Origin: Nanobdellota archaeon | GTDB lineage: Archaea > Nanobdellota > Nanobdellia > Woesearchaeales > UBA583 | DNA: 62,266 bases | Assembly: GCA_022565615.1 (NCBI GenBank) | Contig: JAIUMM010000005.1 | Location: forward strand, 1-62,266 | Reading direction: 5' to 3' | Shown here: in pieces, positions 37,645 to 58,600 of the stretch | How positions within the stretch are numbered: the first letter of the stretch is position 1 | Layout: every line of letters begins with the position of its first letter | Notes under the pieces: model-generated | What the model was told of the DNA's origin: nothing | Database searches by the model: none | Seen by the model: only the letters and a program-made list of their open reading frames with translations | Position numbers and translations under genes: made by a program

Positions 37645-38562
37645 TTGTTGAAAATGGAATCATTAATAAATGTTAATAAAAAAACTAGCGTAATTTTTAC
37701 AATTTTACTCAGTATGCTTTTAATTGCAGGATGTACTGGTGGAGTTGGAGGAGGAGATAATGTAAGAACAGCAAGTATAGGGGGGAGTTCAGCTAATAAT
37801 AATGGGGCTGTTGTTTTGAATTTTGTTGAGAATAATCCTCCTTCTCAGATGTTTAAGGGAGAGAGATATGATTTTGCGTTTGTGATTTCAAATTATCAAA
37901 TGCATGAAGTTGATGATTTACGATTAAGAATTACAGGTTTTGATAGGGGAAATGTAAATGGACTTCCTGAACAAGATACAGTAAGTTCAATTCCTTCTGC
38001 TTCAGAGGTTGCAGGTGCTGGAATTAAAACAGATCATTTTTATAGTGATGTTGTAGTTGATGATTTTACAAGAGAATTTCCTTTAAATCCTAGAATTAGA
38101 TATTGTTATACTCAAACTTCATTTAGAAAACAAGAAATATGTGTTCCTAGTTTAAATAATGTTTGTGGAAGAGATGTAGTTGTTGCAAATACTGTTGAGA
38201 CAAATGGGCCTTTTAATTTTAGGGTTCAAAATGTAAATTCAATTGGGGGGACTATTAGAATTGATTTTGAAGTTACAAATAGACTTGGTGGAAGAGTTGT
38301 TGATGAATGTTTTGGAAGAGAAGGATTTGCAAGTGAATACTCAGGTGTTGTTGCAAGATTAGGTACTGTTGAGGGAAATTGTAGAGCTACTGGGACAAAT
38401 GATTATTTGTTTGCAAATGGAAGAGCTAATTTTTTTTGTGAATTTTCAAGAACTGGTGATGATTCTTATCCTGCTCAGTTATATGTAGAAGCACAGAGTT
38501 TATATGAACAGGAGAAGAGATTAAATATTATGGTAAGAGATCCTAGTTATGGGGTTGGTTAA
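37645..38562 (+). CDS. Putative lipoprotein with a beta-rich, Cys-containing ectodomain
   Basis: LLIAGC lipobox, Gly-rich linker, several Cys; 2 nt from the upstream gene. Confidence 0.7.
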   Translation: MLKMESLINVNKKTSVIFTILLSMLLIAGCTGGVGGGDNVRTASIGGSSANNNGAVVLNFVENNPPSQMFKGERYDFAFVISNYQMHEVDDLRLRITGFDRGNVNGLPEQDTVSSIPSASEVAGAGIKTDHFYSDVVVDDFTREFPLNPRIRYCYTQTSFRKQEICVPSLNNVCGRDVVVANTVETNGPFNFRVQNVNSIGGTIRIDFEVTNRLGGRVVDECFGREGFASEYSGVVARLGTVEGNCRATGTNDYLFANGRANFFCEFSRTGDDSYPAQLYVEAQSLYEQEKRLNIMVRDPSYGVG

Positions 38563-38613: not shown

Positions 38614-39792
38614 TTAAGTTCTATTTAAATTTCCTTGTGATATTATTATCAGATTATTTAATACTAGTTGAATAATTGGAAGGGAGTATTGTTCTAATTG
38701 GTGTTGTGTTGTAGAATCTAAGTCTTGGAGTATTCTTGAGTATGAATTAATTCCTTGAAAATAGGTGAATGTGAGTAATGCTACTTCTTCAGGAGTTGGC
38801 TGTCTTGAAATATCAATATTGAAAAATTGTGCAAGTTGAAATATATGTAGAAAACCTGCTTCTAGTTCTCTTTGTCTTTGTTCATTAGAATTCATAGAAG
38901 CATATCTTCCATTTAAATTGAAATAATTTTCAACCCAATTAATTGTTTGAGGTTTTATTTGAAAAGGGCCTCTTGCATCTGCTGAACTAGTTGTTGTTCT
39001 TCCAAAATTATTTTCAATGAGTAAAAGTCCTACTAAAAGTTGGTAATATGAAGTGTGAATTGAGTGAATTTGATTATTTGAAAGTTGAGATGGGTTTTCA
39101 AGTGAATGCAGAATAAATCTATTGAGTTGAGGATTTATTTGATTAGGGTAAAAAGTGATTTGTCGTTCTTCTTCTTGATAACTTCCATTGGGCATTCTTT
39201 CAATAAGTACTTGAAGCTGAGGTCTAGGACTTGCTGAAATAATAGGGAGTATTTGAGAAAATCGTTGTAGTGCAAGAGGAGCTTCAAGTTGATATCTATA
39301 TACGTTCCATATAAATATGAAATCTTTTTGATCTTGTGTTCTTTGAGATTCATTTATGGATAAGATTTCTTGAGCATAACTTCTAAGTTGGAGTATTTGT
39401 GAATTTTCAAGGGGGTTTATATGTTGTGTTTGATGAATCCAACGTAAATATCTTAAATATTCTTCAAATGTTCCTTCAATTATGGTATCAGGTCTTTGTT
39501 GAGGCCTTATTGTTTCATTATTTGGGGTTAAAAACTGAGTGTTTGTATTTTGTGTGATACTATCTTGAGTTTGTTCGCTTGAGATTTGAGGTGTTGAAGT
39601 TTCTTGTATTGAAATTTGGGAGGGTGAGAGTGGATAGGGATTATTATGAGAAGTTTGATTTGGAAATGATGAAAATGCTAATCCTAATGTGAGTACTTTG
39701 AGAAATGATTTTATTTTTGACATAAATACTATGTTAGATTTTATTTTTAAATAAGTTTGCATTATTATTAAAATATTAATGAAAAAGTTCAT
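38614..39792 (-). CDS. Secreted protein with a lytic transglycosylase (SLT, lysozyme-like) domain; true start probably 39723
   Basis: LLIENNFG...SSADARGPFQIKPQT matches the SLT ExxF...SxxGAxGxxQxxPxT motif; TYFQG resembles AYNAG; leader MSKIKSFLKVLTLGLAFSS. Confidence 0.65.
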   Translation of the reverse strand: MNFFINILIIMQTYLKIKSNIVFMSKIKSFLKVLTLGLAFSSFPNQTSHNNPYPLSPSQISIQETSTPQISSEQTQDSITQNTNTQFLTPNNETIRPQQRPDTIIEGTFEEYLRYLRWIHQTQHINPLENSQILQLRSYAQEILSINESQRTQDQKDFIFIWNVYRYQLEAPLALQRFSQILPIISASPRPQLQVLIERMPNGSYQEEERQITFYPNQINPQLNRFILHSLENPSQLSNNQIHSIHTSYYQLLVGLLLIENNFGRTTTSSADARGPFQIKPQTINWVENYFNLNGRYASMNSNEQRQRELEAGFLHIFQLAQFFNIDISRQPTPEEVALLTFTYFQGINSYSRILQDLDSTTQHQLEQYSLPIIQLVLNNLIIISQGNLNRT

Positions 39793-39813: not shown

Positions 39814-41100
39814 TTAGAGAAAAGGAAGGGGTTCAATTTTATTTCTTTTCTTTTTAATATATGTTCCAATATTATATTTTAAGTGTTCAAATAAATATGC
39901 AGGTTGCATTTGAGGGATTATTGATTTGTAAATATAAATTTCTTCTTCTTCTGCTTCTTTTGGTGTTAAGTTTACAAAGTAGTAGTCAATTTTTTGTTTA
40001 TCAAGATACTTGCAGATTAATTCAAATTTTTCTTCATCAGTATTTGTATTTTCTACTTTTAAATGTTTTTTAAGTTGTTTGTATGGTGTTTGTTGTTCTA
40101 ATATGAAATTTAGGATTTTTTTATGTTTGTGTTGTGCATAAAAGAAGATTCTATCAAGTACGTTATTTACATCTTCTTCTTTTTGAATTTTTGAATCATA
40201 ATTAGGGTTTTCAAGCAATAATTGTTCAATCCATATTGTTGATTTGATTGCTTCAAGTAATGCTCCTGTTATTGCTTCAATAAGATTAATGTCACTTGAA
40301 CTTCCAATACAAAGAGCTGGTTTGTGATGAATATTTTTATTAGTGCTTTCAAGTAAAACAAGAATGGAGTGATATTCTTCTTGAGTATTTATTTTATAAA
40401 CATGTACGTTTGTAATAGTGTCTTGTTTGAGTTGTGTGAGAAGATGATTAAGAGTTGAGTGTTGCTCTAAATCTTGATTATTGAGTTTATAGTATGGTTT
40501 TTGGTTTAAAAATGAGCACATGAAATCGTGTCTTTCTAATACTTCCATCACTGCGTGATATTTGGTGCTTTTAGGTGAGGTTCTAAGAGCAGTTCCAGTT
40601 GTTATTGAAAATCTTATATATGTATCATCATAACTAAATGGAACATAGACCATTTGAGCAGGAAGGTAATAATTATTATTTTCTTTGTCTTGACATAATG
40701 TCCAATAGTATTTTGCTTGAAGTATTTCTTTTTGATTAAGTTGGGATGAGTTAATAAATTCTTTAAGTGGTATTATTTGATTTTCTTCTTCTTTTGCTTG
40801 TTTTTCTATTTCACTTTGTGTTTTACATAGTAATTCTCGTATATTATATATAGAGATTACATATCGCTCTAATGCTTCTGCGTACACTTTAAGTATTGCA
40901 TCATCTCTATTCTCACTAAGTGATGATGCTGAGGCTGTATATTTTGTTTTATATAAATCTGAATTTTGTGTATATACATCAGTGTAGAGATAAAAATATG
41001 TTGGGTAATTATGTAGTGTATTTGTTCTAAATATTTCTCCCATATTTGGAATTTTTTGATGAACTTTTGCAAGTTTTGTAATAATTTCTTCGTAATCCAT
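39814..41100 (-). CDS. YcaO-like family protein, stand-alone
   Basis: AEALERY, LPAQMVY, ITTGTA, MEVLERH, GALLEAI, and C-terminal EPLPFL (PxP). Confidence 0.85.
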   Translation of the reverse strand: MDYEEIITKLAKVHQKIPNMGEIFRTNTLHNYPTYFYLYTDVYTQNSDLYKTKYTASASSLSENRDDAILKVYAEALERYVISIYNIRELLCKTQSEIEKQAKEEENQIIPLKEFINSSQLNQKEILQAKYYWTLCQDKENNNYYLPAQMVYVPFSYDDTYIRFSITTGTALRTSPKSTKYHAVMEVLERHDFMCSFLNQKPYYKLNNQDLEQHSTLNHLLTQLKQDTITNVHVYKINTQEEYHSILVLLESTNKNIHHKPALCIGSSSDINLIEAITGALLEAIKSTIWIEQLLLENPNYDSKIQKEEDVNNVLDRIFFYAQHKHKKILNFILEQQTPYKQLKKHLKVENTNTDEEKFELICKYLDKQKIDYYFVNLTPKEAEEEEIYIYKSIIPQMQPAYLFEHLKYNIGTYIKKKRNKIEPLPFL

Positions 41101-41227
41101 ACTTTATGTAATAATTTGAGATTTTATAAGTGTTAGTATATACATTAGAATATTTGTGTAGGTCATGAAATTTTAAATGATTAACTATTCATTTGTTTTT
41201 AACTTTGAAGTGAAACTTAAAGAAAAG

Positions 41228-41235
41228 TTTATAAA
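41228..41235 (+). promoter_or_regulatory. Archaeal TATA box
   Basis: TTTATAAA 22 nt before the ATG at 41258. Confidence 0.6.
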
Positions 41236-41257
41236 GTTTGAAGTCATATAGATATAA

Positions 41258-41575
41258 ATGTCACTGGAAAATAAAGTATCCTCTAATATTAAACTATCTC
41301 CTAAGTCTTTTGCATTAGCAGGAGGAATTATGTTAGGTAGTTTTTTATCTCCTGTGTATGCTAATGATAGTTATAATTCTCAAACACAAACTCCACAATA
41401 TCCTACTTGTGAGTATTTAATTCAAAACCCACAGTATGTTGGAGATAGATGTACTTTATCTTCAGGTCAAGTAGTTCCAATTGTTAGAACTAATACGAAT
41501 TCTCAAGGAAATTTAATTCAAGAATATATTGCACAAGTTGAATCGCAAGTTCCTTGGGGTAGAAATAGAAATTAA
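41258..41575 (+). CDS. Small secreted protein with two Cys
   Basis: Signal peptide ending PVYA/ND; divergent from ycaO. Confidence 0.75.
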   Translation: MSLENKVSSNIKLSPKSFALAGGIMLGSFLSPVYANDSYNSQTQTPQYPTCEYLIQNPQYVGDRCTLSSGQVVPIVRTNTNSQGNLIQEYIAQVESQVPWGRNRN

Positions 41576-41603
41576 ATTAGTGTATTTAGATAGTATTTTT
41601 GTG

Positions 41604-42170
41604 TTATCTTTCTAATTTTCTAATAAATTCTTGATAATGTTGATGTGTTACTGGTGAGATGAATACTGTATTATCGTTAGTGTTGATATGGCTTAAAACT
41701 CCACAAATTTTACCTTCAAGGGTTGTAACTGGAGATCCACTAAATCCTCTCATAACTTCTTGTACGGGAATTGGACTATAATGTAATTCTCTTCCTGCAA
41801 TTGGTATGTCTGTTTGACTTAGTATTAAATTATGTCTACTTCCATTGGTTAAATGTAGTATGCATTCATCTCCTGCTTTTAGTTCTTGTTCATATATTTC
41901 AAGAGGAGTTCTTTGAGATGGAATTTGTCTTCTAAATAATGTGGTGTCTCTTCTTTGAGGCGAGTAGTGTTCTTCGTAATGTCTAAATTCAGGAATTTCA
42001 TCAAAAACATGTCTTGCTGTAACTGAAATGTGGGGGTTTTGAACAGGAGTTGAGGGTGAGAGTCTATTGCCTTCTAGTTCAAAAATAGGTGGAATTGATT
42101 GAGTTGTTGTTCTACATGAGGAGAGTAATGTCCCTCCAACTAATAAAAATGTTCTTCTTGTAAGTCTCAT
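41604..42170 (-). CDS. Trypsin-like serine protease, Tat-type lipoprotein
   Basis: TRRTFLL twin-Arg motif and LSSC lipobox; triad motifs TARH, RDTTL, GFSGSP followed by GKICGV. Confidence 0.75.
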   Translation of the reverse strand: MRLTRRTFLLVGGTLLSSCRTTTQSIPPIFELEGNRLSPSTPVQNPHISVTARHVFDEIPEFRHYEEHYSPQRRDTTLFRRQIPSQRTPLEIYEQELKAGDECILHLTNGSRHNLILSQTDIPIAGRELHYSPIPVQEVMRGFSGSPVTTLEGKICGVLSHINTNDNTVFISPVTHQHYQEFIRKLER

Positions 42171-42292
42171 TATAGATTGAGAAATTAAATTGAGTTTAAA
42201 TGTGTTGTTATTGGGTTTAAAAAATATTGAAATTCTTATTTGTTCTATACTTAAATTATTTTAACTTATGTGGAGTGGTAAATATGGAAAAA

Positions 42293-42300
42293 TTTATAAA
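42293..42300 (+). promoter_or_regulatory. Archaeal TATA box
   Basis: TTTATAAA 21 nt before the ATG at 42322. Confidence 0.6.
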
Positions 42301-42321
42301 TATGTAAATCATAGTTAAACT

Positions 42322-42801
42322 ATGACACAAAAAAAATCATTAACATCAAGATTAGTAGCACCTGCTTTAGTAGTAGGAAGTTTAGGACTTGCAGCTTGTT
42401 CTCAAGAACCTCCAGTTGGAGCATCAGTTCAATCAACTGCTTCAGGGTATACTGTAACTCCGCTAATTCCGCAAGAAGGAGGTTTAGTAAGACCTGGGAG
42501 ATCTATAAATATTAGACACAGCGGGAGTTGTATGCAAACTAGTTTTAGAGGAAATGAGTATAGATTTTGTCAAGGGACTCAACCATATAATACAGTTGTA
42601 TCTGCTGCAAGAGTTGGGGGAATTAGTCCTGCAAATCCAGATTTAAGAGCTGAAGAATTAAGAGCATTTGAAAGATCATTAGCACCATACAGAGTAAATC
42701 AAGGTGGAAGTGGAAATGGAGGAGGAAGTACTGGTGGAAACTCAGGTGGTGGTAATAGTGGAGGAGGAAATTGTGGTGGGGACTGTGGGGGGGGAAGATA
42801 A
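42322..42801 (+). CDS. Putative lipoprotein with a Gly/Ser/Asn/Cys-rich C-terminal tail
   Basis: LGLAAC lipobox; tail QGGSGNGGGSTGGNSGGGNSGGGNCGGDCGGGR. Confidence 0.75.
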   Translation: MTQKKSLTSRLVAPALVVGSLGLAACSQEPPVGASVQSTASGYTVTPLIPQEGGLVRPGRSINIRHSGSCMQTSFRGNEYRFCQGTQPYNTVVSAARVGGISPANPDLRAEELRAFERSLAPYRVNQGGSGNGGGSTGGNSGGGNSGGGNCGGDCGGGR

Positions 42802-42862: not shown

Positions 42863-45800
42863 ATGAAATTTAAATTCATATTATTTTATTTTATTTTAAG
42901 TTTATATTTAGTTGTTAATTTTTCATTAGCAATTTATGTAGATTTAGTTCCTGAATCTGATTCTGGAATTTTAGCCACTGTATTTTATTGTGATCCTAAT
43001 GTTGAAAATTGTCCTGCAGTTTTATCTCATGTTGATTCATCATTAATAGACATTCCTATTGAAAATATTAAAAATTTTAATTTTGACCCTTCTGCTACAT
43101 CAGAGGTTTGGAAAGGTTTTTATGTATATAAATCAGGGAAAAGACTAGAAGTTTACAGTAGGGGTTCATATGGTACAGTCCCTATGGGTCCAGGAAGTTC
43201 TCCTGAAAATCCTATAACTATGGACATATTTGCTATGGGTGGGTACTATTCAACTTCAACAGGTGCTTTTAAAAATGATTTAAGGGGAGTTGATAGTTGT
43301 AGAGTTATTCCTGTAATTGATGGAGATGTTATAAACTTAAATTCAAATCTTGATTATTTAAGTAGGTTTTCTACTGGAACTATTCAAGAACTCCCTTCTT
43401 CTTTAGAGCAGTATTATTTTATGAATGCTAATGTTCAAGTGTATGCTCAAAATGGAGATGGAACTGTTTTTGAAATTTATAATAATAATATTTTAATGCC
43501 TCAATATGATATAGCTCGTTCTTTAAATTATAATTTAAATACTCAAACAGGAGTTATAACAGTAAATGGAAATTCAGTTACTCTTCCTCCTGGAGAGTAT
43601 GATTTGAAAGTTAAAACTGATACCACTATTGAGCCAAAGTGTGATTCCGGTAGAGGAACTATTCAAGAACCGGTTCTAGATTCTTTTACAATCTCTGCTC
43701 CTCCTTCTCCTCAAGATGTTGTAATTAATGAATTTATATCAGTAGATAGAAATCAAATAATCTTAGATATTAGTAGAAATGGTTTTACTGGAGCAATTCC
43801 TCTTCAATTTGATTTTACAAGAATTCCTGTTCACCAAGAAGAATGGAATATGAATGATAAACGTATCAATAATTCATTTAGTGTAACAATTCCTCAAGGA
43901 AGTGCTGATGGACAGATAAGAATTAATGTTGGAAGTATTAGTTATGGTGATATTGAACAAAGTGGAGGAATCTCGACAAATCAGTTTTCTTCTACATTTG
44001 CAGGAAGATTTGATGTAAAAGTTAATGTTCAAGGCAATTCAACTACTTTTTCAAATCAAGGACTTTTCTTCTGTCAAAGTGGAGATTCTTCTTGTGATTC
44101 AGTTCCAGATGTTGAGGATGTATGTCCTGAAGAGTTTGGAACTCCTTTTTACAAAGGATGTCCATCTGAAGATATTGCAATTGAATTAATACCTCCAATT
44201 GAAGGACATTGGAGTTTATCTTGTAGTCATCGTTCATATTTGTTGTATTCTTCAAGATATGTTTCATATGATTCAGTTCAAAATAGATTAAGATGTTCAG
44301 GAGGAGGAGGATTGTTTGGAGTTGATAATCACTTTTATATTAATGATACATATCATTCTTCTGGAAACAAAAATGTGTATGTGAACAATCCAACTACTGC
44401 GGAGTATAAATGTTATGCAAGTGGTAGATTGTTTGCTACATGTTCTTTTGAATTTAGACCTGAGCAAAATGAAATTGAGGTTTCGGTATTTGATATGGAT
44501 AGAGATGGATTAAATTATTATCCTACTTGGTGGATAAATAGATTTGAGAGTTATGTTACTTTAAATAATATTCAAAGTGAAGATCTCTGTCCAGCTTCTT
44601 ATGGACTTGCTCAAAATGATGGATGTCCTGTTACAAACAAGGAACTAATATATATTAATTTAAGTGAATCCGGAAGAGATTTAATAACATTCCCTGATTT
44701 TAATGAAGATAAAATTTTCTTTGAGGATTCAACAAACTCAATATTTATAGGAAGAGATAGGGCTGAGTTAAGTGGAATTCAAAGTATTTCAACTAATCCA
44801 ATTCAAATTGATATTACAAGTTCTTGTATTCCTACAATTCCATTATCTCAGATATTGCTAAATAATCCTCAACTCTCACAACTTATTAATTTAGAACTTA
44901 ATATGATTACTCTTACTAAACAAGATATAGAAAATCAGTTAACCCAATATGAAGAGCAAATTCAACAATTAGATCCTCAGCAATTAGTTGATGAACTCCA
45001 ACAAGATACTCTGCCACCAGGTCTTGTAGATTCTCTGCCACCAGGTCTTCAAAATATGGAAAAATTACCAAAAGGACTCAGAAGAGATAGAGTTCCAACA
45101 AGAGAAGATATGCAAAAATTAATTGAACAGAAAAGATTAGAAGAGATGGGGAAAATTTCAAGAATCTCAGTTGAAGAGAAAAGGAGAATCATTGATTATT
45201 TAAGAAAAGTTTCAGATTGCTCTCAAACAATTCAAAGAGAAGATGAGTTAGATTTATTTTCTTTAACATCAACTCTTCATCTACTTACTCCAATTGATAC
45301 TACTCAGAGGACAAGGGATGTTATAAATTCAATAATTAATACTGCAAATCAATTACAAATTTCAAAAACTATTGACCCTCAGATTAGTTCAAATCAAATT
45401 AGAACACAAATTAGTTTAAATATTGATAATATTCCAGCTAATACTACAATTTGGCAAGTGATTCCAAAAGAAAGTATTCAAGACTTTGATGCTTTAAGAA
45501 ATTCAATTCAACAAGGTAATGCTGATGAGATTAGAGTTAAAGATAAAGATCCAATTATTGGATGGTACTTTGGTTCAGGAGGAAGTTCTGGAGACATAGG
45601 ATTTGAAATAGAAGGTACAGGTGAAGGAGGTTCTACAATTCCTATTGAAGATACGATTTACTTTAATTATGGGGAGTTAATTGTGAATTATAGGGAATTT
45701 GGATGTTTTGAAAGTGAAAATGAATTATTTACAATTCAAAATATTACAGGATCATTAGTCAATAAAACTACATTTTCATATTCAGTATGTATAACACATA

Positions 45801-46732
45801 ATGGAAGTCATGATGTTTCACCTTCTGCTCCTTTAATTGAACAATATTTTGGAATTGATTCTACTCAAAGACTTACTCAAAATATTCGTGATATAGATTT
45901 ATTTAAACAAGAAGGTTCAGATTTAGGATATAATACATATTATGCTATGTTTTATGGAATTTCTCCTCCTAGACTAGATTATTCTTGTATAGGTTCAATA
46001 GATGAAGTAACAGGATTATTTGGAGGGTGTATGTATAGGCCTAATAATAGGTTATGGATGTATTACGGAGATGATCCATTCCCTCCTCAAATAGATTTAT
46101 TCTATGTTCCATCACATTCAATTCAACCACAAATTACAATATTTGATGAAATATCAGGAGTGAGTGAAATTAGGTATTGTATTACAGAAGATGAATTTGA
46201 GAGTTGTAATTTCCCAGCACAGTATATTCAAGTTAGTTCATTTACACAAGGAGAAAATCTAGTAGAGATTTCAATTCCTACAATTAGATGTCCAGATGTT
46301 AGAGATTGTGAAAAACATATTAGAATCTATGTTGAAGATGTAGAAGGGAATAGTGTGTGGCATAATGAAACATTACTTCTTCTTCAAGAAGCAACTTCTT
46401 GTAATGCTCAATGTATTGCACAACCATTACCTGGAAGATATTTGGCTTCATGTCATAGAATTAGTGGTTGTGAATTCATGGGATTAGATAGTGAGAGTGA
46501 AGAAGAGAAAGGAACAACAGTTGCTAATTTATGTAATTATAAAGTTCCAAATTCGTGGGTTGATATAGGGGGAGGTCTTGAAGTTCAATGTCCAAGTGGT
46601 CCAATTAGAGTTTCAAGATTTACACAAATCCCTTTTACAGTTAATTCAAATATTTGTGGAGATATAAACTCAAACAGAATTCCAGTTATAATTGATGGAG
46701 AAGAAGTTACTATGCATATTATTACTTGTTAA
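42863..46732 (+). CDS. Large (1289 aa) secreted or surface protein, Cys-rich
   Basis: Signal peptide; two thrombospondin-type-3-like repeats (DVCPEEFG...KGCP, DLCPASYG...DGCP); LPPGL repeats; Cys-rich C-terminus. Confidence 0.8.
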   Translation: MKFKFILFYFILSLYLVVNFSLAIYVDLVPESDSGILATVFYCDPNVENCPAVLSHVDSSLIDIPIENIKNFNFDPSATSEVWKGFYVYKSGKRLEVYSRGSYGTVPMGPGSSPENPITMDIFAMGGYYSTSTGAFKNDLRGVDSCRVIPVIDGDVINLNSNLDYLSRFSTGTIQELPSSLEQYYFMNANVQVYAQNGDGTVFEIYNNNILMPQYDIARSLNYNLNTQTGVITVNGNSVTLPPGEYDLKVKTDTTIEPKCDSGRGTIQEPVLDSFTISAPPSPQDVVINEFISVDRNQIILDISRNGFTGAIPLQFDFTRIPVHQEEWNMNDKRINNSFSVTIPQGSADGQIRINVGSISYGDIEQSGGISTNQFSSTFAGRFDVKVNVQGNSTTFSNQGLFFCQSGDSSCDSVPDVEDVCPEEFGTPFYKGCPSEDIAIELIPPIEGHWSLSCSHRSYLLYSSRYVSYDSVQNRLRCSGGGGLFGVDNHFYINDTYHSSGNKNVYVNNPTTAEYKCYASGRLFATCSFEFRPEQNEIEVSVFDMDRDGLNYYPTWWINRFESYVTLNNIQSEDLCPASYGLAQNDGCPVTNKELIYINLSESGRDLITFPDFNEDKIFFEDSTNSIFIGRDRAELSGIQSISTNPIQIDITSSCIPTIPLSQILLNNPQLSQLINLELNMITLTKQDIENQLTQYEEQIQQLDPQQLVDELQQDTLPPGLVDSLPPGLQNMEKLPKGLRRDRVPTREDMQKLIEQKRLEEMGKISRISVEEKRRIIDYLRKVSDCSQTIQREDELDLFSLTSTLHLLTPIDTTQRTRDVINSIINTANQLQISKTIDPQISSNQIRTQISLNIDNIPANTTIWQVIPKESIQDFDALRNSIQQGNADEIRVKDKDPIIGWYFGSGGSSGDIGFEIEGTGEGGSTIPIEDTIYFNYGELIVNYREFGCFESENELFTIQNITGSLVNKTTFSYSVCITHNGSHDVSPSAPLIEQYFGIDSTQRLTQNIRDIDLFKQEGSDLGYNTYYAMFYGISPPRLDYSCIGSIDEVTGLFGGCMYRPNNRLWMYYGDDPFPPQIDLFYVPSHSIQPQITIFDEISGVSEIRYCITEDEFESCNFPAQYIQVSSFTQGENLVEISIPTIRCPDVRDCEKHIRIYVEDVEGNSVWHNETLLLLQEATSCNAQCIAQPLPGRYLASCHRISGCEFMGLDSESEEEKGTTVANLCNYKVPNSWVDIGGGLEVQCPSGPIRVSRFTQIPFTVNSNICGDINSNRIPVIIDGEEVTMHIITC
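45009..45049 (+). repeat. 24-bp-period tandem repeat encoding DTLPPGLV/DSLPPGLQ
   Basis: CTCTGCCACCAGGTCTT at 45009-45025 and 45033-45049. Confidence 0.85.
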
Positions 46733-46836: not shown

Positions 46837-48333
46837 ATGTTAGATTTTATAATTAATTATTTTAATAATCATTTATTTTTATTTTTACTATTTATTGTCA
46901 CAATTATATATTTTTTAATTGCTTCATATGAAGATTTTAAAAAAAAAGAAGTATTTAATTTTATTAACTTTTCATATCTTTTCATTACTAGTTTTTTAAT
47001 AATATTATATTCAATTTCACAAGTTTCAATTCAGATATTGGTGATTGGAATATTAGGATTATTTTTAGGTTTTTTACTTGGAAGTATTTTATTTTTCTTA
47101 GGGATATGGGGTGGAGGAGATGCTAAATTTCTAATTCCTTTTGGAGGAGTATTTACATTATTAGCTACTCAAACTTCTTCATTATTTTCAAGTTTTGAAT
47201 TATTTTTTAGTACTAGTAATTTAGACAATAATGTTATAGTTAATGTTAGTGAATTAATGTTTATAATTTTAGCTTACTCATTGTTATTAATTAATTTTTT
47301 AATAATACTCTACATTCTTTACAAACTAGTTTTAGTTAAAAAAATTAATCATCTCTACATTTCTACATTAATACTTTTAATATTTATTATAATTGGAATG
47401 ATTTCAATATTTCCAATAATTCCATTTGAAATTAGGTTAATTAGTTCTTTAAGTTTTATTATATTATTATTTTTGATTCCAAATTCTTCTTTTTTCATGG
47501 TATCTAAATTTGAAAAACTTTCAACACAGGGCTTAAAAAAACTTTTTAAATTAGAAAAAGAAAATGTGTCAGAGTATTATCTTTCTCATCCAATAGTGTT
47601 ACACTCAAAAGAAATTGAACCTTTTAGATTAAATTCTTCTCCTCTAACATTAGCTAAAGTTGAAGAGTTTGAGAAAAAAGGGTTAAATAATTCTTCTTAT
47701 TTAAATGTTGTATCAATTCCTCCAATAATTCCATTTTTTTTATTTCAACTTTTAGTTATTATGTTTTTATTAATATTTGAATTTAAAGAACAAAATCTTG
47801 TATTATTATTTAAATTTGTAGAATTTCTATTACTTTCATTTTTAGTTGGAGGATTGTATGTAATTGTATTAGTATTGTATAATTCAGTAATACATTTGAA
47901 ATTAATTTATCAGTCAATTCCTAATTATAGATTTTTTACATATGTTTTCTCAATACTTGTTCTTTTAATTACTCATATTATAGCTCATAATATACTAATT
48001 TCACAAATAAGTTTAATGGGTGGAGTAATTGTTATTTGTCTTTTTTTATTTGAAATCACTAAAATTATTGAAAAAAAAATATTTGTTATTGAGACTACAA
48101 TTGATGCAATAACTCTTGGAGATTGGATTGTAGAAGATGTAATTGTTGAAGATAATATAGTTTTTAAAAAAGAAGATTTTAAACTTGGGGTTGAAGAATT
48201 TCAATTAGAAATATTAAATAAGTTATATGGAGAAAATAAATTAAAATCACTTAAAGTCAAATCCGGAATTGCATTTATACCTCATTTATTTATAGGATTT
48301 ATACTATTAATTGTGTTAAATTTATTTTATTAA
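46837..48333 (+). CDS. Prepilin/prearchaellin peptidase (A24, FlaK/PibD-like), extended
   Basis: Catalytic Asp motifs YEDFKKKEV and WGGGDAK; C-terminal GDWIVED and GIAFIPHL. Confidence 0.85.
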   Translation: MLDFIINYFNNHLFLFLLFIVTIIYFLIASYEDFKKKEVFNFINFSYLFITSFLIILYSISQVSIQILVIGILGLFLGFLLGSILFFLGIWGGGDAKFLIPFGGVFTLLATQTSSLFSSFELFFSTSNLDNNVIVNVSELMFIILAYSLLLINFLIILYILYKLVLVKKINHLYISTLILLIFIIIGMISIFPIIPFEIRLISSLSFIILLFLIPNSSFFMVSKFEKLSTQGLKKLFKLEKENVSEYYLSHPIVLHSKEIEPFRLNSSPLTLAKVEEFEKKGLNNSSYLNVVSIPPIIPFFLFQLLVIMFLLIFEFKEQNLVLLFKFVEFLLLSFLVGGLYVIVLVLYNSVIHLKLIYQSIPNYRFFTYVFSILVLLITHIIAHNILISQISLMGGVIVICLFLFEITKIIEKKIFVIETTIDAITLGDWIVEDVIVEDNIVFKKEDFKLGVEEFQLEILNKLYGENKLKSLKVKSGIAFIPHLFIGFILLIVLNLFY

Positions 48334-48418: not shown

Positions 48419-49456
48419 ATGTTCTTTTCAAAAAAACAAGTAACTTTTATTGAAAATTTGAATTCTCACAATACTAAAGAATCTTTAATTAGTTCAGCAT
48501 ATTTACTTTATTCTTTAAATAGTTTAGAATCATGTGCATATGTCAATCTCGATGCTACTAAAAATTCATTTATTTCTCTTTTAGAACAATTATTTTTAAG
48601 AACTAATTTAAAAAAAGAATATCCTTATATTCATATAGATTATTATTTAAAATTTAATTCAAATTTCTTAATTAAGGGAATTTTATCTCAAGCTGAATTT
48701 CAAAATTTAAAAATTGAAAAACTAGTTCAAAATTTAATTTATTATAGATATGATACAATTATTCTTGATAATTTAGATGTTACTTCTCAGCATTTAGATA
48801 CAATACTCACTATTTTAAATTCAAGTGAGATAACTTCTAATATAGTAATAATTGGGTCTGATAAAATTAAATTTTTTTTTGAGAAGAAAAAAATAGAATT
48901 TCATTCATCATTAAAATTGGAGTTACATTCAAATTTGAAAGATTCACAATCTTTGTATTCATCTTCACCTTCTTTAGATGTACAATATTCAAATCAACCA
49001 AATATTTTGAATATTTTAACAAACCCAAATATTTCTTCATGGTTGAGTATAACATATAATTTAATTTCTATAAAAAAATCTGGAACTAAACGTTTTTTCT
49101 TTATTTCAAATTCATATTCTTATTCTAAAGAAATTACATTTATTTTAATTATGAAAAAATGTTTAAAACAAATTCCTGAATTTGAAAATTGGGATTATAT
49201 GGTAATTAATCCTAATAATTTAAATTTTATCTTAGATATGGAGTATAATAAACAACTTACACTATTAAATCAATCTTTACTTGTCGAAGGATTTTCAAAT
49301 TTAATTTTTAATACAACTTTAGATATTGAAAAATTTGTATTACACAAATTAACTAATTTGAATACACTTGAAACTGTAAATAATACGAATAATTCATTTG
49401 TAATAATTTCTTCACTTAGTCAAATCAATAAGAGTTCAATAGTAAAGTTAAATTAA
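48419..49456 (+). CDS. Hypothetical protein, possibly a degenerate P-loop (KaiC/FlaH-like) fold
   Basis: CAYVNLD and Walker-B-like DTIILDNL strands, no Walker A; weak. Confidence 0.4.
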   Translation: MFFSKKQVTFIENLNSHNTKESLISSAYLLYSLNSLESCAYVNLDATKNSFISLLEQLFLRTNLKKEYPYIHIDYYLKFNSNFLIKGILSQAEFQNLKIEKLVQNLIYYRYDTIILDNLDVTSQHLDTILTILNSSEITSNIVIIGSDKIKFFFEKKKIEFHSSLKLELHSNLKDSQSLYSSSPSLDVQYSNQPNILNILTNPNISSWLSITYNLISIKKSGTKRFFFISNSYSYSKEITFILIMKKCLKQIPEFENWDYMVINPNNLNFILDMEYNKQLTLLNQSLLVEGFSNLIFNTTLDIEKFVLHKLTNLNTLETVNNTNNSFVIISSLSQINKSSIVKLN

Positions 49457-49603
49457 ATACTAATAAATTAAAATAAACTACTATTAAAGTGAAATAGTGT
49501 TATATCTAAAACTTATTTTTATTATTTGTTTTTCTAAGTTAATTGTTTTTTTCACTTGAAAATACTCAAAAAATAATATATTAGATATAGTTGATAATTA
49601 ATT

Positions 49604-50404
49604 ATGTCAATATTTGGAAAGAAAAAAGAAAATGCACCTCCTGCTCCTCCTATCCCTTCAGGAGGAGGATTAAATGATATTAAAAGTGAGATTAGTGGAA
49701 ATCAGGGTAATAATGTAACAGATGAAAATTCTAAACTGCCACCACCACCAGGATCTTCTGCTGCTATGAGTAGTTCAACTTCATCAGTTCAATCTATGCA
49801 AACTAATGGAGTTAGCAATAGAAATTCTTCTACATCTTCTCCTAGTTTTGATCCATCAAACATTTCAAAAAATAATGGATTTAATCAAAATAATGAGAAT
49901 TCAAGTTTAAACTCTTCATCTACTATGAATAATTCTAATTTAAATCTTGCAAAAAAATCAGTATTAGATGAATCATTATTTAATTTAGAAGATTTTGAGT
50001 TGCCTAATTTAGATGATTTAGATGATATTGATATGAAAGTTAAAACTCTTGAAAATAAAAATTCAAATACTTATAATGAAACTTCTTCAAATTCTTTAAC
50101 TTCTAATTTTAATAATTCAAGTTCTAAATCACAATCTCATAACTTAAAATCTGAGCATTTTATTCCTACAAAAGGACTTTCAGCCTCTGATAAAGAAACT
50201 TTCTTTTTAACAACAAATGAGTTTAAACATTTATTGGAATTAGTGGATTCAGTGAAAGATAGAGTGAGAATTTCAACTCAAAGGCATATGAAAATAACAA
50301 CTATTAAAGCTGAAGAAGATATTGAATATGAAAATATGAAAAAGGATTTTCAATTTATTGAGGATAAATTGTATGAAGTTGATAGTACAATATTTGAGAG
50401 GTAA
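49604..50404 (+). CDS. Hypothetical protein: Pro/Ser/Asn-rich disordered N-terminus and a C-terminal coiled coil
   Basis: PPAPPIP and PPPP motifs; C-terminal ~70-aa helix pair resembling the next ORF. Confidence 0.75.
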   Translation: MSIFGKKKENAPPAPPIPSGGGLNDIKSEISGNQGNNVTDENSKLPPPPGSSAAMSSSTSSVQSMQTNGVSNRNSSTSSPSFDPSNISKNNGFNQNNENSSLNSSSTMNNSNLNLAKKSVLDESLFNLEDFELPNLDDLDDIDMKVKTLENKNSNTYNETSSNSLTSNFNNSSSKSQSHNLKSEHFIPTKGLSASDKETFFLTTNEFKHLLELVDSVKDRVRISTQRHMKITTIKAEEDIEYENMKKDFQFIEDKLYEVDSTIFER

Positions 50405-50409
50405 TTAAA

Positions 50410-50619
50410 ATGAATAGAAATCAAAGAGAGGTTTTCATTAGAGTTCAAAATATTAAAGAAATTGTAGGTATTTTAGAACAAATTGAAGAATCACAAAATA
50501 TTGTTAAAGCTTTAATTCCTAAAATTGAAGAAGTTAAACAAAAAGAAGAATTAATTTTAAATAATTGGATGAATCATCTTGAGGAAATTGATGAGAAGGT
50601 TGAACATTTAACATTATAA
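50410..50619 (+). CDS. Small coiled-coil protein
   Basis: 69 aa, 5 nt from both neighbours; VFIRV...EEL...W...LEEIDEKV. Confidence 0.7.
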   Translation: MNRNQREVFIRVQNIKEIVGILEQIEESQNIVKALIPKIEEVKQKEELILNNWMNHLEEIDEKVEHLTL

Positions 50620-50624
50620 TAAAA

Positions 50625-51242
50625 ATGGCACTTAAAAAAAAACAAATAAATAATACAAATCATTCAAGGTCTTCAAAACTTATTAATACAAATGATTATA
50701 GAGTAGAAGATTCAGATTTATACGTTTGTGTATATGATGTGGTTAATAAAAGAAAATCTTTACTCTCTGCACTTAAAAATTCTTTAGTATCTCAAGAAGA
50801 ATTTGAGATTTTACAATCTTCAAGGACTGCTAAATATCATTATATTCAAGAGATGAAAAAAGAGTTAGAGAAAATTAATTCTTTATATGCAAAATTACAA
50901 AAGTTGTTTCCAAATACAAGACACATATTAACATTTGCAGAAAAAGAAATGAAAGAACTTGAACATCAAGTTGGAAATTTAGTAAAATCTCGTGAAATTG
51001 AAGATCTAGAGCTTGAAAATTTAGATCATTTAAAAGAAGAACTTGAAGAAATAGAAGAAGAAAAAGTTCATCAAAGAAATCAAAAAATTTTAAAAACAAA
51101 TTTAGATTATAATCCAAGTGAATTAGAAGAAGAAAAATTATCTAGTTTGTATTCATCAAAACATCCTCAGAATAAAGAATCTAAATTAAATAGAATTCAA
51201 AATAATTTAAGCATTATTGAAGAAAAACTTAAAAATTTATAA
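50625..51242 (+). CDS. Coiled-coil hypothetical protein
   Basis: 205 aa, third gene of a tightly packed trio; ends LSIIEEKLKNL. Confidence 0.75.
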   Translation: MALKKKQINNTNHSRSSKLINTNDYRVEDSDLYVCVYDVVNKRKSLLSALKNSLVSQEEFEILQSSRTAKYHYIQEMKKELEKINSLYAKLQKLFPNTRHILTFAEKEMKELEHQVGNLVKSREIEDLELENLDHLKEELEEIEEEKVHQRNQKILKTNLDYNPSELEEEKLSSLYSSKHPQNKESKLNRIQNNLSIIEEKLKNL

Positions 51243-55642: not shown

Positions 55643-58600
55643 ATGATTTTAAATTTTAATAATAATAAATTGATTAGTGGATTTTTAGTATTAATTATTT
55701 TAATTATTAGCTCTATTTCTGCTATTCAATACTTATCTTCTAATTCAATTTTTGATGTTACAATTTTACAAATTAATGATAGTTTAATTCCATATTCTAT
55801 TGAACTTGAACTTAAGAATAAAATTCTTGAAGAACTAGAATTTAATATTGAAATTTACTCATTAGATAATTCAATTTTGGTTTATGAGGATATTATAATA
55901 TGTAGTGATAGTTGTACTTTTACTTTGAATTTTTCAAAGGTTTTTTTTGATAAACATGAAATTTTAATTTCAACTATATATAATCAAGAACTTTTTGAGC
56001 AAAGAATCTCTTTTGAATTTGAACAAAGAAAATCTAATTCTAAAATTGTAATGAGAAATGCTTTTTTAGTATCATCAAGAGAGAATACAAATATTACAGG
56101 TTTGCTGGAATTAGAGAGTGTTTCAAATGCTTTTATTGAAATATTTCCAAAAGATTTTGAGCATTTAAAAGAGCAGTACACTATTTCTTGTAATTCTTTA
56201 AATTGTGAATTTAATTTTCCTTTGAACAATATAGTCGTATTGGGAGAATATACTATTCGTGCTTTTTTAGAAACTGACTATATTGAAAATAATTTTAGAA
56301 TTTATTCACAATCTCAAGGCACAGTATCAACTAATTTAGATAATGATTCAAATTTGAATAATAAAACTTCACAAATATATGTGGGAGATGATATTGAGAA
56401 AGTCACAATTTTAGATGCGTTTGGTAATTTAAGAGAAGTTGAAGTAATTAATGGTTCTTTTGATTCAATTGGAATTACTTCATTTTCAAAAGAAGATTTT
56501 AAACAAAGACCTTCTATTTCAACAACTACACGAATTCAATCAATTGACTCAATAATTGAAATGTTGAATGAAAATATGTCTTATGATAGAGTTGTTACTT
56601 CATATAATTTTGAAGAGAGTTTTGAGAATATTGAATTTTTACAACGTCAAGTTGAAATTAAAAAAAGTCAATCTTTTGAGGAATATATGAATGAATCTTC
56701 AAGATTATCTAGAAATGAACAGATTGTTTATGAAGAGGAGAATTTATACTTTGCAAGAGGAAGAGGAGTAGTTGATTTAGAAAAAATTGATTTTAGTTCA
56801 AACAAATTAATTCCAGGGATTTATAAAAAAGAGAGAATTGTTAGATTTGAAGATGGAAGAGAAGAAATTTTTGAAAAATTTTTTGCATATGGATTAGTTT
56901 CAATTAATACTTTAAAACCTTTATACTATAATGATGAAGTAGCAGAAGTACTAATTGTAGTACTTGATAGATGGGGTTATTTAGTTGAAGATGCAAATAT
57001 TACGCTTCAAGTAATAACTCCTCAAAATAATTCTATTTTACTTAAAACAGAAAATCTAGATATTTTACCTACTCAAGATATGGGTGTGTATTCAACTGCT
57101 TTTGAATTAAACGAAGTTGGAGAATATATAATGAATGTAGTGACTCAAGTTGATGGGTTTGAATTAGAAATGCAGACTTTTGTGAATGCAGTTGAGAGCT
57201 ACGAATTTGATATTATTAGAACAGTTCCTGCAACTATTGATCCATGGGAAGGGCCTTTTAGAAATGAGTTCACAATTACACCTAAAAATGGATACTCAGG
57301 TTTATACTCATTAACTGAGCAGTTTTCATCAGATTTTGAAATAATTGATACTAATGCAGATGAAATTGAGACAATTGGTTCAACTACTTATTTGACTTGG
57401 AATAACTTATTTCTAGAATCACAAGTATTTTATGAAGCTCAAACTCCTCTTGTAACTCCATATTTATATTTTTTAGGAAATGCTTTTATTACATATAATG
57501 AAGGTTTTGAAACATTCTATGAAAATAGAAGTTGGCAATTTGCAATTGACCCTGCTGCAAGAGTGTGTGGAGCTCAAAGCCCTTGTATTTGTGGAGCTGC
57601 ATGTTCGGGTGGAAATGAACCAGGTTCAGGAACTATTGATGCTTGTAGTGATGGAAATACTGACTATGAATGGACTAATGATATTCGTGTAACAGCACTT
57701 GATGCTCCATTTTTTGGAGTGGGAGATCAAATTGAAATTTGTGTGGATTTTAATTGTGATATTGGTTTTGGAGGAGATAGGGCTTTAATTAGTTATAAAG
57801 ATGGATCAAGAGGTTGGTTAAATGGAGATGTTATTTTTGCAACAGCTGGTACTACAGGGCAAGCAGGTGCATGTGTTGGTCTTCAAACATATTGTGTTAC
57901 AAGAACATTAAATTCATTTGTAGGTGTACATCATGTAAGAGGTAGTACAGTATATCAAGGAAGAGCAGATAGAGTTTGTGAGACAACAGGAAGAACTTGG
58001 AGAGATCATGATGATGTTGAATTTGTTGTATTAGATAAAATTACACCTTCAGTTATTTCTTGGAATTTGGATAATGGTACTAATGTTGGAAATAATTTAC
58101 AAGTAATTAGAGGAAATTTAATTAATTCTACAACTCTTTGGAATATTGAACTTCAAGGAGGGGATATTAGACATAACTCAATTGGATCATTTACTAATTA
58201 TAATGTAAATTCGTTTGCAAATAATAGAACAAATTATACATTTGATACAAGTGATATTTCTTTATTTCCTCAAAGAGGAGTAGTTGAGATTCAAAGAGTA
58301 AGAGCTAATGATTTTTTTTTTAATTTACAAGGGACTTCGTCAGGTACAAGACAGTTTACAATTATAGGACTTGCGGAAGTAAATCAAAGTAGTTTAGTTC
58401 CAAATGTTGGATTTGAGCCTTTACAAACGACTAAAAGTTGTCAAATAATTGATTCAGTTATTAACTCAGTTGCATATCAAGGAGTTGATGTTGATTTTTA
58501 TATAAATTCTTCATTTTTAGGAACAAATTCCACAAACTCTCAAGGTTGGGCAGAGTTTACATTTACTCAACCAATTATTGGAGATTTTGAAGTAGAGTGT

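Follow-up and report, generated by a model that had tools for sequence, protein, structure and literature searches.

What could a YcaO enzyme act on when the genes that usually accompany it are missing? This question is raised by a stand-alone YcaO gene in the window, by which we mean the whole 62-kb stretch of DNA analysed here (62,266 nucleotides of contig JAIUMM010000005.1, from a Nanobdellota archaeon), and by the nearby gene gly159, which encodes a predicted lipoprotein ending in a Gly/Ser/Cys-rich tail. A preliminary description of the locus had proposed that YcaO modifies this tail and that a neighbouring protease releases it. We compared the enzyme, the tail and their surroundings with related loci. 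The results revealed that signal-peptide proteins with a Gly-run/Cys tail recur beside the closest related YcaOs. With confidence a little short of even, we favour the explanation that the window YcaO is an azoline-forming enzyme, lacking both partner protein and dehydrogenase, that acts on the Gly/Ser/Cys tail of gly159. To our knowledge, no archaeal YcaO product beyond the thioamidation of methyl-coenzyme M reductase (MCR) has been characterised.

The YcaO enzyme and its branch of the family

The window YcaO matched Pfam PF02624 (E = 4.7e-26) with 92.3 bits, above the gathering score of 25.7. As first described, it carries both ExxER motifs for ATP/Mg, EALER at residues 75–79 and EVLER at residues 186–190; in a 51-sequence family alignment, E75, R79, E186 and R190 never vary, and E78 and E189 hardly do. 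The C-terminal PxP noted earlier is also present, since the protein ends in ...EPLPFL, with the third Pro of PxPxP replaced by Leu (clade consensus PHPFL). A C-terminal PxP is associated with azoline-forming YcaOs (PMC12338566). An AlphaFold2 (AF2) model built on the 51-sequence alignment reached a predicted local distance difference test score (pLDDT) of 92.4 and a predicted template-modelling score (pTM) of 0.93. Foldseek superposed this model on the Methanocaldococcus jannaschii YcaO (6peu; template-modelling (TM) score 0.70/0.78), LynD (0.68) and McbD (0.63), as well as on the M. kandleri and E. coli YcaOs. The fold matches (6peu, 4v1v, 6gri and 4q86) had E-values of 1e-18 to 1e-11, in a search that cannot separate azoline-forming from thioamide-forming YcaOs, and searching PDB sequences with the YcaO profile gave no match at E 0.01.

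A word-indexed homologue search returned two orthologues and no others, 82% and 67% identical and from two metagenomes. The dN/dS values against these were 0.12 and 0.20, and the gene is therefore maintained by purifying selection; the open reading frame (ORF) is intact in all three lineages, with every catalytic residue kept. The closest named relative comes from a Pacearchaeota metagenome-assembled genome (MAG). Only about 60 residues precede the YcaO domain. A genome scan with N-terminal YcaO patterns gave no match. The 18-sequence alignment was too diverse for pattern derivation, and viral-contig scans with YcaO and with the SLT-like and protease-like neighbours described below were all empty. 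These results show, by identity, fold, conserved catalytic motifs and purifying selection, that YcaO is a genuine enzyme gene.

The best NCBIfam model for the enzyme was TIGR03604 (SagD-type thiazole/oxazole maturase; E = 3.2e-41), with 141.5 bits, which is less than the curated cutoff of 219.25. The same model came top for all of the relatives scanned (18/18; best E = 3.8e-85), while the McrA-thioamidation model TIGR03266 gave 37.5 bits against a cutoff of 365. An exhaustive profile search yielded 1290 YcaO cluster representatives at E ≤ 0.001; the best matches listed were mostly 400–460 amino acids (aa) long, and most of the 60 C-termini inspected end in PHPFL. Among the loci fetched around related YcaOs (numbered L001 onwards), 17 have a SagB/nitroreductase gene directly after YcaO (L003–L009, L011–L013, L016, L017, L019–L022 and L036). 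Precursors of classical kind also lie near YcaO: a 63-aa peptide ending in ADSCSNSGDGCNGSCNHSSK in L013, a Cys-rich 79-aa ORF in L003 and, approximately 1.1–1.6 kb upstream of each YcaO in L004–L009, near-identical NHLP-type precursors of 102–105 aa ending in ...GCCCTCTPACCC, GCCCTCTPACCCTAAAVIKAA or VVGAGCCCTCTPACCCTAAAVIKAA. No E1/ThiF-type gene was seen beside the related YcaOs in the fetched loci; a Haloplanus plasmid, by contrast, carries a classical C-D-B trio. Because SagB directly follows YcaO in 17 loci and precursors are found nearby, the clade as a whole is truly one of azol(in)e formers, of the thiazole/oxazole-modified microcin (TOMM) type. By its sequence affinities, the window YcaO is a divergent member of this SagD/TOMM azoline-forming branch and not of the TfuA/thioamide branch, in agreement with the side of the family to which it had first been assigned.

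This placement bears on whether some cellular protein is the target of another YcaO chemistry, such as amidine formation, peptide cleavage driven by ATP or the thioamidation known from McrA. An archaeal YcaO that stands alone would suit such a role, and the thioamide-forming enzyme of M. jannaschii is the top structural match, although LynD and McbD match nearly as well. Against it stand the lack of any TfuA found in the window, the two model scores (37.5 bits for TIGR03266 versus 141.5 bits for TIGR03604), the pairing of the relatives with SagB and the azoline-type C-terminal PxP (PMC12338566), and we regard a different chemistry as quite improbable.

Several features of the related clusters were observed in addition. 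The canonical clusters of DPANN type (L011:89-4817, L036:29-3131, L013:167-4174 and L003:6072-8903) are ordered as an HExxH protein of about 190 aa, YcaO, SagB and a paralogue-like protein of about 180–200 aa. An ABC-F-type ATPase (two ABC domains, no transmembrane domain called) comes next in L011 and L013 and could provide immunity by ribosome protection, hinting at a translation-targeting product. The NHLP-type precursor loci L004–L009 occur in Bacteroidota, Ectothiorhodospiraceae and Arcobacteraceae MAGs, and the near identity of their precursors across these groups suggests that a single TOMM cluster type has spread horizontally.

None of the usual partner genes was detected in the window. 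Pfam scans, which covered 43 of the 49 window ORFs of at least 100 aa, revealed no TfuA, ThiF/E1, nitroreductase/SagB or ABC exporter. BLAST with three SagB queries found no match anywhere in the window, and a SagB homologue is also absent from L001, the contig of the 82% identical orthologue. Similarly, no E1-like/ThiF-like leader-binding domain, fused or adjacent, was present among the 43 ORFs scanned, and the window scans found no equivalents of McbB or McbC and no McbEFG-type export or immunity genes, YcaO being the only member of the set. The lack of TfuA, E1-like partner, flavin dehydrogenase and exporter noted in the preliminary description thus holds: the window YcaO is detached from its usual SagB and has no recognisable leader-binding partner. 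Knowledge of azoline-forming YcaOs that function on their own, with no partner protein, is scant, as Cox et al. 2015 point out (PMC4603692).

Since the SagB, HExxH and ABC-F genes of the related DPANN-type clusters are missing here, YcaO might be regarded as the functionless orphan remnant of a decayed TOMM cluster. We consider this very improbable in view of an ORF that has stayed intact in three lineages, at dN/dS of 0.12–0.20 and with its full set of catalytic residues.

Gly/Ser/Cys tails beside YcaO genes

The tail of gly159 was found exactly as it had been quoted (Table 1). Its candidate heterocyclisation sites are C151 and C155, together with S130, S136, T137, S141 and S146. The GC fractions of gly159 at the three codon positions are 0.52/0.61/0.11 (overall 41% GC); the third-position value is host-like (0.10–0.16 in neighbouring genes), so gly159 is a native gene in the correct reading frame. 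It matched no Pfam, NCBIfam or PHROG family. Its sole hydrophobic stretch is N-terminal, with no transmembrane segment ahead of the tail, and a TTTATAAATA element lies about 30 nt ahead of its ATG. A screen of the whole window for Cys/Ser/Thr/Gly-rich candidate cores ranked this tail best among real genes; its score was equalled only by a 31-aa ORF antisense to the giant ORF described below. Directly upstream of YcaO, neither strand encodes a small Cys/Ser-rich precursor, and just featureless ORFs of about 20–26 aa were present. The earlier caveat that the Cys residues of the tail follow Asn or Asp is softened by a conventional short precursor that adjoins a related DPANN-type YcaO and has the core ADSCSNSGDGCNGSCN.

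Recurrent Gly-rich ORFs beside the closest YcaO homologues, which the preliminary description had suggested looking for, were indeed found. P0005, P0008 and P0013, which are among the window YcaO's five best non-orthologous BLAST matches (with P0004 and P0006), each adjoin a signal-peptide protein of 156–172 aa that ends in a Gly run and Cys (...GGGNCGGQV, ...GGGGGGGACI and ...GGGGGACI). In L012 (32% GC; YcaO P0005), the YcaO-SagB pair is followed 6 nt on, in convergent orientation, by a 156-aa signal-peptide protein ending in ...DDEDGGGNCGGQV. In L025 and L026 (52–57% GC; Rhodocyclales-like by names), a 170–172-aa protein directly upstream of YcaO consists of a signal peptide, an ectodomain and a transmembrane helix, and ends in ...SSGGGGGGGACI or ...SSGGGGGACI. 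The heptad GGGNCGG is identical in gly159 (residues 147–153 of 159) and the L012 protein (residues 148–154 of 156). When all ORFs with 30 aa or more in 27 sequences were screened for such tails, gly159 and the L012, L025 and L026 proteins were the only ones identified; the strict filter gave three of these four, and the L026 protein, just under the composition threshold, was read directly.

Beyond the heptad, hhalign and BLASTP detected no homology among the bodies of gly159, the L012 protein and the Rhodocyclales protein, and the idea of one conserved precursor family was dropped for that of a shared tail module. The three genomic backgrounds have GC contents of 27%, 32% and 52–57%; because these backgrounds differ and homology between the bodies escapes detection, what the proteins share is the tail. 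The recurring architecture and tail form the pattern expected if the enzyme recognises the tail, which supports, but does not prove, such recognition.

On the explanation we favour, modification would be cytoplasmic and would either precede Sec export or accompany it. The backbone carbonyl ahead of C151 or C155 would be attacked by the Cys thiol (Ser/Thr hydroxyls might react likewise), YcaO would phosphorylate the hemiorthoamide with ATP, and elimination of phosphate would yield thiazoline (or oxazoline) rings. With no dehydrogenase, the rings would remain azolines, and the product would be a modified surface-protein tail, whether clipped off or not. The azoline chemistry is suggested by the family placement, and the choice of the gly159 tail as substrate by co-occurrence.

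A number of observations weigh against this explanation. As had been cautioned, the genes are in mixed orientations and gly159 carries a lipobox: YcaO and gly159 belong to different transcription units, 1.2 kb apart with two intervening genes, and gly159 would be atypical as a TOMM substrate in its length, signal peptide and orientation. With a lipoprotein signal and no transmembrane segment before it, the gly159 tail ends up outside, away from ATP, so that modification would have to precede Sec export; the bacterial tail proteins, by comparison, have a transmembrane helix that would keep the tail cytoplasmic (less clearly in L012). The window encodes neither a partner protein nor a RiPP recognition element (RRE) protein (RiPP, a peptide made on the ribosome and modified post-translationally). 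The tail identity between gly159 and the L012 protein spans 7 residues only (E = 0.03 in a single comparison), and the arrangement is known from three independent lineages only. On L011, the 5.5-kb contig of the closest relative, P0004, such a tail protein is missing, and the orthologous contigs do not reach far enough to reveal conservation of the tail gene. The earlier proposal that YcaO modifies the tail is strengthened by the recurrent tails and weakened by the separate transcription units and the missing transmembrane segment.

The Rhodocyclales loci add a further point of this kind. The tail-protein family there has 32 matches, and its tail is hypervariable beyond the motif ATKKDD. A convergent class I methyltransferase and the tail protein enclose a gene slot that is occupied by YcaO, by unrelated proteins of 464, 236 or 185 aa, or by nothing, and some Gly/Cys tails have no adjoining YcaO, for example GNGGCGGGNCG beside a 464-aa unknown protein. 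Given this variable slot, YcaO adjacency in these bacteria could reflect an insertion hotspot. The possibility that the 464-, 236- and 185-aa slot proteins are cryptic YcaOs was rejected by test.

Other observations were made around the bacterial tail proteins. The Rhodocyclales-type contigs L025–L035 (e.g. L027:4708-7481) encode proteins of about 170 aa with a signal peptide, a conserved ectodomain, a transmembrane helix, ATKKDD and a hypervariable Gly/Cys/Pro tail. Several of these loci have a KAP NTPase and a gene of about 670 aa upstream and toxin-antitoxin pairs downstream, and the whole has the look of a polymorphic locus of tail plus cargo. No match came from a plasmid search with the bacterial tail protein. 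In L012, a Cys-rich 140-aa ORF with no family match (L012:3827-4249) lies beside the tail protein and the YcaO-SagB pair.

The points against the favoured explanation leave room for an active YcaO whose substrate is encoded elsewhere, in which case its clustering with gly159 would be incidental within an island of cell-surface genes and the tail a flexible low-complexity segment. We take this possibility seriously, although we lean against it. It would account for the separate transcription units and the variable Rhodocyclales slot. Lipoproteins are abundant in DPANN genomes (PMC12462473), and Gly-rich linkers occur in neighbouring lipoproteins as well (e.g. CTGGVGGGDN in the ORF at 37645-38562). 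Additionally, distantly encoded precursors escape neighbourhood searches, as noted by Cox et al. (PMC4603692). It would not account for Gly-run/Cys tails beside three related YcaOs when the tail screens of 27 sequences found no others, for a GGGNCGG heptad that is identical and at the same position, or for the lack of any other real gene in the window that scores as a candidate core.

The tail arrangement is shared by a DPANN-like archaeon, another organism of low GC, which has SagB, and bacteria of the Rhodocyclales, whose tail is hypervariable and would face the cytoplasm. In a broader form of the favoured explanation, a sub-clade of TOMM-type YcaOs would have given up short RiPP precursors in favour of C-terminal tails on full-length proteins that are exported or anchored in the membrane, installing azolines in the Gly-run/Cys tail without a leader-binding partner; the purpose would be surface-protein tail modification and not antibiotic biosynthesis. 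We put this forward as a doubtful generalisation, and rather unlikely as it stands.

Neighbouring genes and the genomic setting

The three small ORFs around YcaO and gly159 were present as described, and their coordinates are given in Table 1 with those of the other features.

Table 1. Coordinates in the window of YcaO, gly159 and the features around them.
Feature	Position	Strand	Basis or remark
SLT-like secreted protein	38614..39792	(-)	downstream of YcaO, same strand; weak Pfam/PHROG matches
YcaO, 428 aa	39814..41100	(-)	Pfam PF02624, TIGR03604, AF2/Foldseek, orthologues
AT-rich intergenic region, divergent starts of YcaO and 105-aa ORF	41101..41257	.	no Cys/Ser-rich small ORF
105-aa ORF, signal peptide, two Cys, divergent from YcaO	41258..41575	(+)	
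Protease-like secreted protein, 188 aa	41604..42170	(-)	motifs, weak Peptidase_S55/PHROG matches
AT-rich intergenic region, divergent starts of protease-like gene and gly159	42171..42321	.	
gly159, predicted lipoprotein, 159 aa, candidate YcaO substrate	42322..42801	(+)	ORF, codon usage
gly159 signal peptide, lipobox LAAC (Cys26)	42322-42399	(+)	
gly159 C-terminal tail GGSGNGGGSTGGNSGGGNSGGGNCGGDCGGGR, 32 residues (128-159)	42703..42798	(+)	

The SLT-like (lytic transglycosylase-like) protein matched Pfam SLT (PF01464) with E = 0.1 and 12.6 bits against a cutoff of 21.3, and a PHROG 'endolysin domain' with E = 0.0099, both at residues 249–292. Its motifs run LLIENNF...GPFQIKP...YFQG, and LLIENNF, GxFQIKP and YFxG are conserved in the orthologue. 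Comparison with the orthologue also indicates that the true start is probably at M23 (about nt 39726). The gene is kept near YcaO in L001 (L001:2308-3342), where it is 42% identical, compared with 82–88% for the other neighbours. Its dN/dS between the window and L001 was 0.34 versus 0.12–0.18 for neighbours, and it is therefore fast-evolving. An additional, unrelated 209-aa gene (1557-2186, minus strand) lies between YcaO and the SLT-like gene in L001.

The protease-like protein has an N-terminus, MRLTRRTFLLVGGTLLSSC, that combines a Tat-like RRTFL motif with a lipobox-like LSSC; the combination of twin-arginine motif and lipobox would be uncommon outside haloarchaea (PMC12462473). Peptidase_S55 (E = 0.22) and a PHROG 'protease' (E = 0.057) matched the same residues, around GFSGSPV, and the motifs TARHV and GFSGSPV were seen by eye. 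A single-sequence AF2 model was unusable (pLDDT 36). Judging by these motifs and matches, the protein may be a small chymotrypsin-fold serine protease. The names 'SLT' and 'trypsin-like protease' given in the preliminary description thus retain two weak same-residue matches each, all of which are sub-threshold, and PDB sequence searches with the two proteins found no match. The 105-aa ORF matched no Pfam, NCBIfam or PHROG family and has no homologue in the fetched loci. Similarly, neither it nor the protease-like protein has a counterpart in any fetched locus, and the SLT-like gene has none other than that in L001. As these genes do not recur in other loci, nothing functionally ties the SLT-like, protease-like and 105-aa genes to YcaO.

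These results bear directly on the kit that had been proposed at first, in which YcaO modifies the tail, a serine protease releases a microcin-B17-like peptide and the lytic transglycosylase completes an antibacterial or host-interaction system. The genes are all adjacent, all but YcaO encode signal peptides, the weak protease-like and SLT-like matches come from two independent libraries and fall on the same residues, and synteny between the SLT-like gene and YcaO is kept in the orthologous contig. However, neither the protease-like nor the SLT-like gene occurs in any other YcaO/tail locus, both family assignments are sub-threshold, the protease model failed, and an unrelated gene separates YcaO from the SLT-like gene in L001. 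Without a dehydrogenase there would be none of the azoles required for microcin B17 (MccB17) activity, and neither an exporter nor an immunity gene was found. The release of the tail by the protease and the joint action with the SLT-like protein consequently found no support, and we judge such a kit improbable.

The window as a whole has a GC content of about 27%. Profile scans identified archaeal housekeeping genes, including the RFC small subunit, a Rad50-like ATPase, Elp3, a DRG-type GTPase, a class I Trp/Tyr-type tRNA synthetase (tRNA-synt_1b) and a FlaK-like prepilin peptidase; because of this gene content, the window is consistent with a piece of chromosome from a small-genome DPANN-like archaeon. 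YcaO sits within a series of signal-peptide proteins without known family at 34–46 kb. The promoter/terminator scan used a bacterial consensus and is uninformative for an archaeon.

Several other genes of the window were recorded. A giant ORF of more than 2200 codons (55643-62266) continues past the window end, and a secreted Cys-rich protein of 1289 aa is encoded at 42863-46732; both lack a Pfam match and are probably large surface proteins. The FlaK/prepilin-peptidase-like protein (46837-48333) is unusually long at 498 aa, with its Peptidase_A24 match limited to residues 20–124, and three family-less ORFs (48419-51242) come after its gene. The Elp3-like radical SAM/GNAT protein (6149-8425; 758 aa) has about 165 residues without any match between its ELP3_N and radical SAM matches, which may be an insertion.

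Significance and comparison with known systems

If the tail is the substrate, YcaO heterocyclisation would reach beyond small secreted peptides and include the C-termini of surface proteins of full size. Enzyme and tail would then form a minimal two-gene system that could serve to modify proteins C-terminally. In DPANN biology, it would point to chemical modification of a surface protein in an organism whose way of life is attachment to other cells.

The window YcaO shares its fold, ATP/Mg ExxER motifs and PxP with the SagD-type cyclodehydratases of TOMM and linear azol(in)e systems (BalhD, McbD and LynD), has their TIGR03604 as its top model, and belongs with relatives that pair with SagB and Cys/Ser-rich precursors. 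It differs from them in scoring below the family cutoff and in lacking a dehydrogenase and any E1-like, ThiF-like or RRE partner; moreover, the tail of a 159-aa lipoprotein, and not a short leader-core peptide, is its candidate substrate. Also close in kind are the YcaO-SagB clusters of DPANN/candidate phyla radiation (CPR) type (L003, L011, L013 and L036) and those of NHLP type (L004–L009), whose YcaOs belong to the same clade, end in PHPFL or PLPFL, have about 410–450 aa and show no C protein beside them. Retained in these clusters are SagB, the HExxH protein and precursors that are short or of NHLP type, often with an ABC-F ATPase as well; the window lacks all of these.

Among archaeal enzymes, the methanogen marker 1/TfuA-associated thioamide YcaO is similar in size and close in fold (6peu, TM 0.70/0.78), whereas the window has neither TfuA nor an MCR context and its YcaO reaches 37.5 of the 365 bits set for TIGR03266. 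Microcin B17 (McbA with McbBCD) offers a Gly-rich Ser/Cys core after a Gly run, and McbD is a structural match (TM 0.63). The likeness of the gly159 tail to it, on which the preliminary description had relied, stands as one of composition and not of homology: McbB, McbC and the export and immunity genes have no equivalents in the window, the Cys residues follow Asn/Asp, and gly159 bears a Sec/lipobox signal. The stand-alone YcaOs of bottromycin biosynthesis (BotC/BotCD type) likewise act without a partner protein (PMC7136475); they belong to a large actinobacterial cluster with a follower-peptide precursor, and their likeness to the window YcaO would be functional, with no sequence-level affiliation shown. 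Set against these systems, the window YcaO is a known kind of enzyme, of TOMM type, and what sets it apart is its partner-less setting near a lipoprotein with a Gly/Ser/Cys tail.

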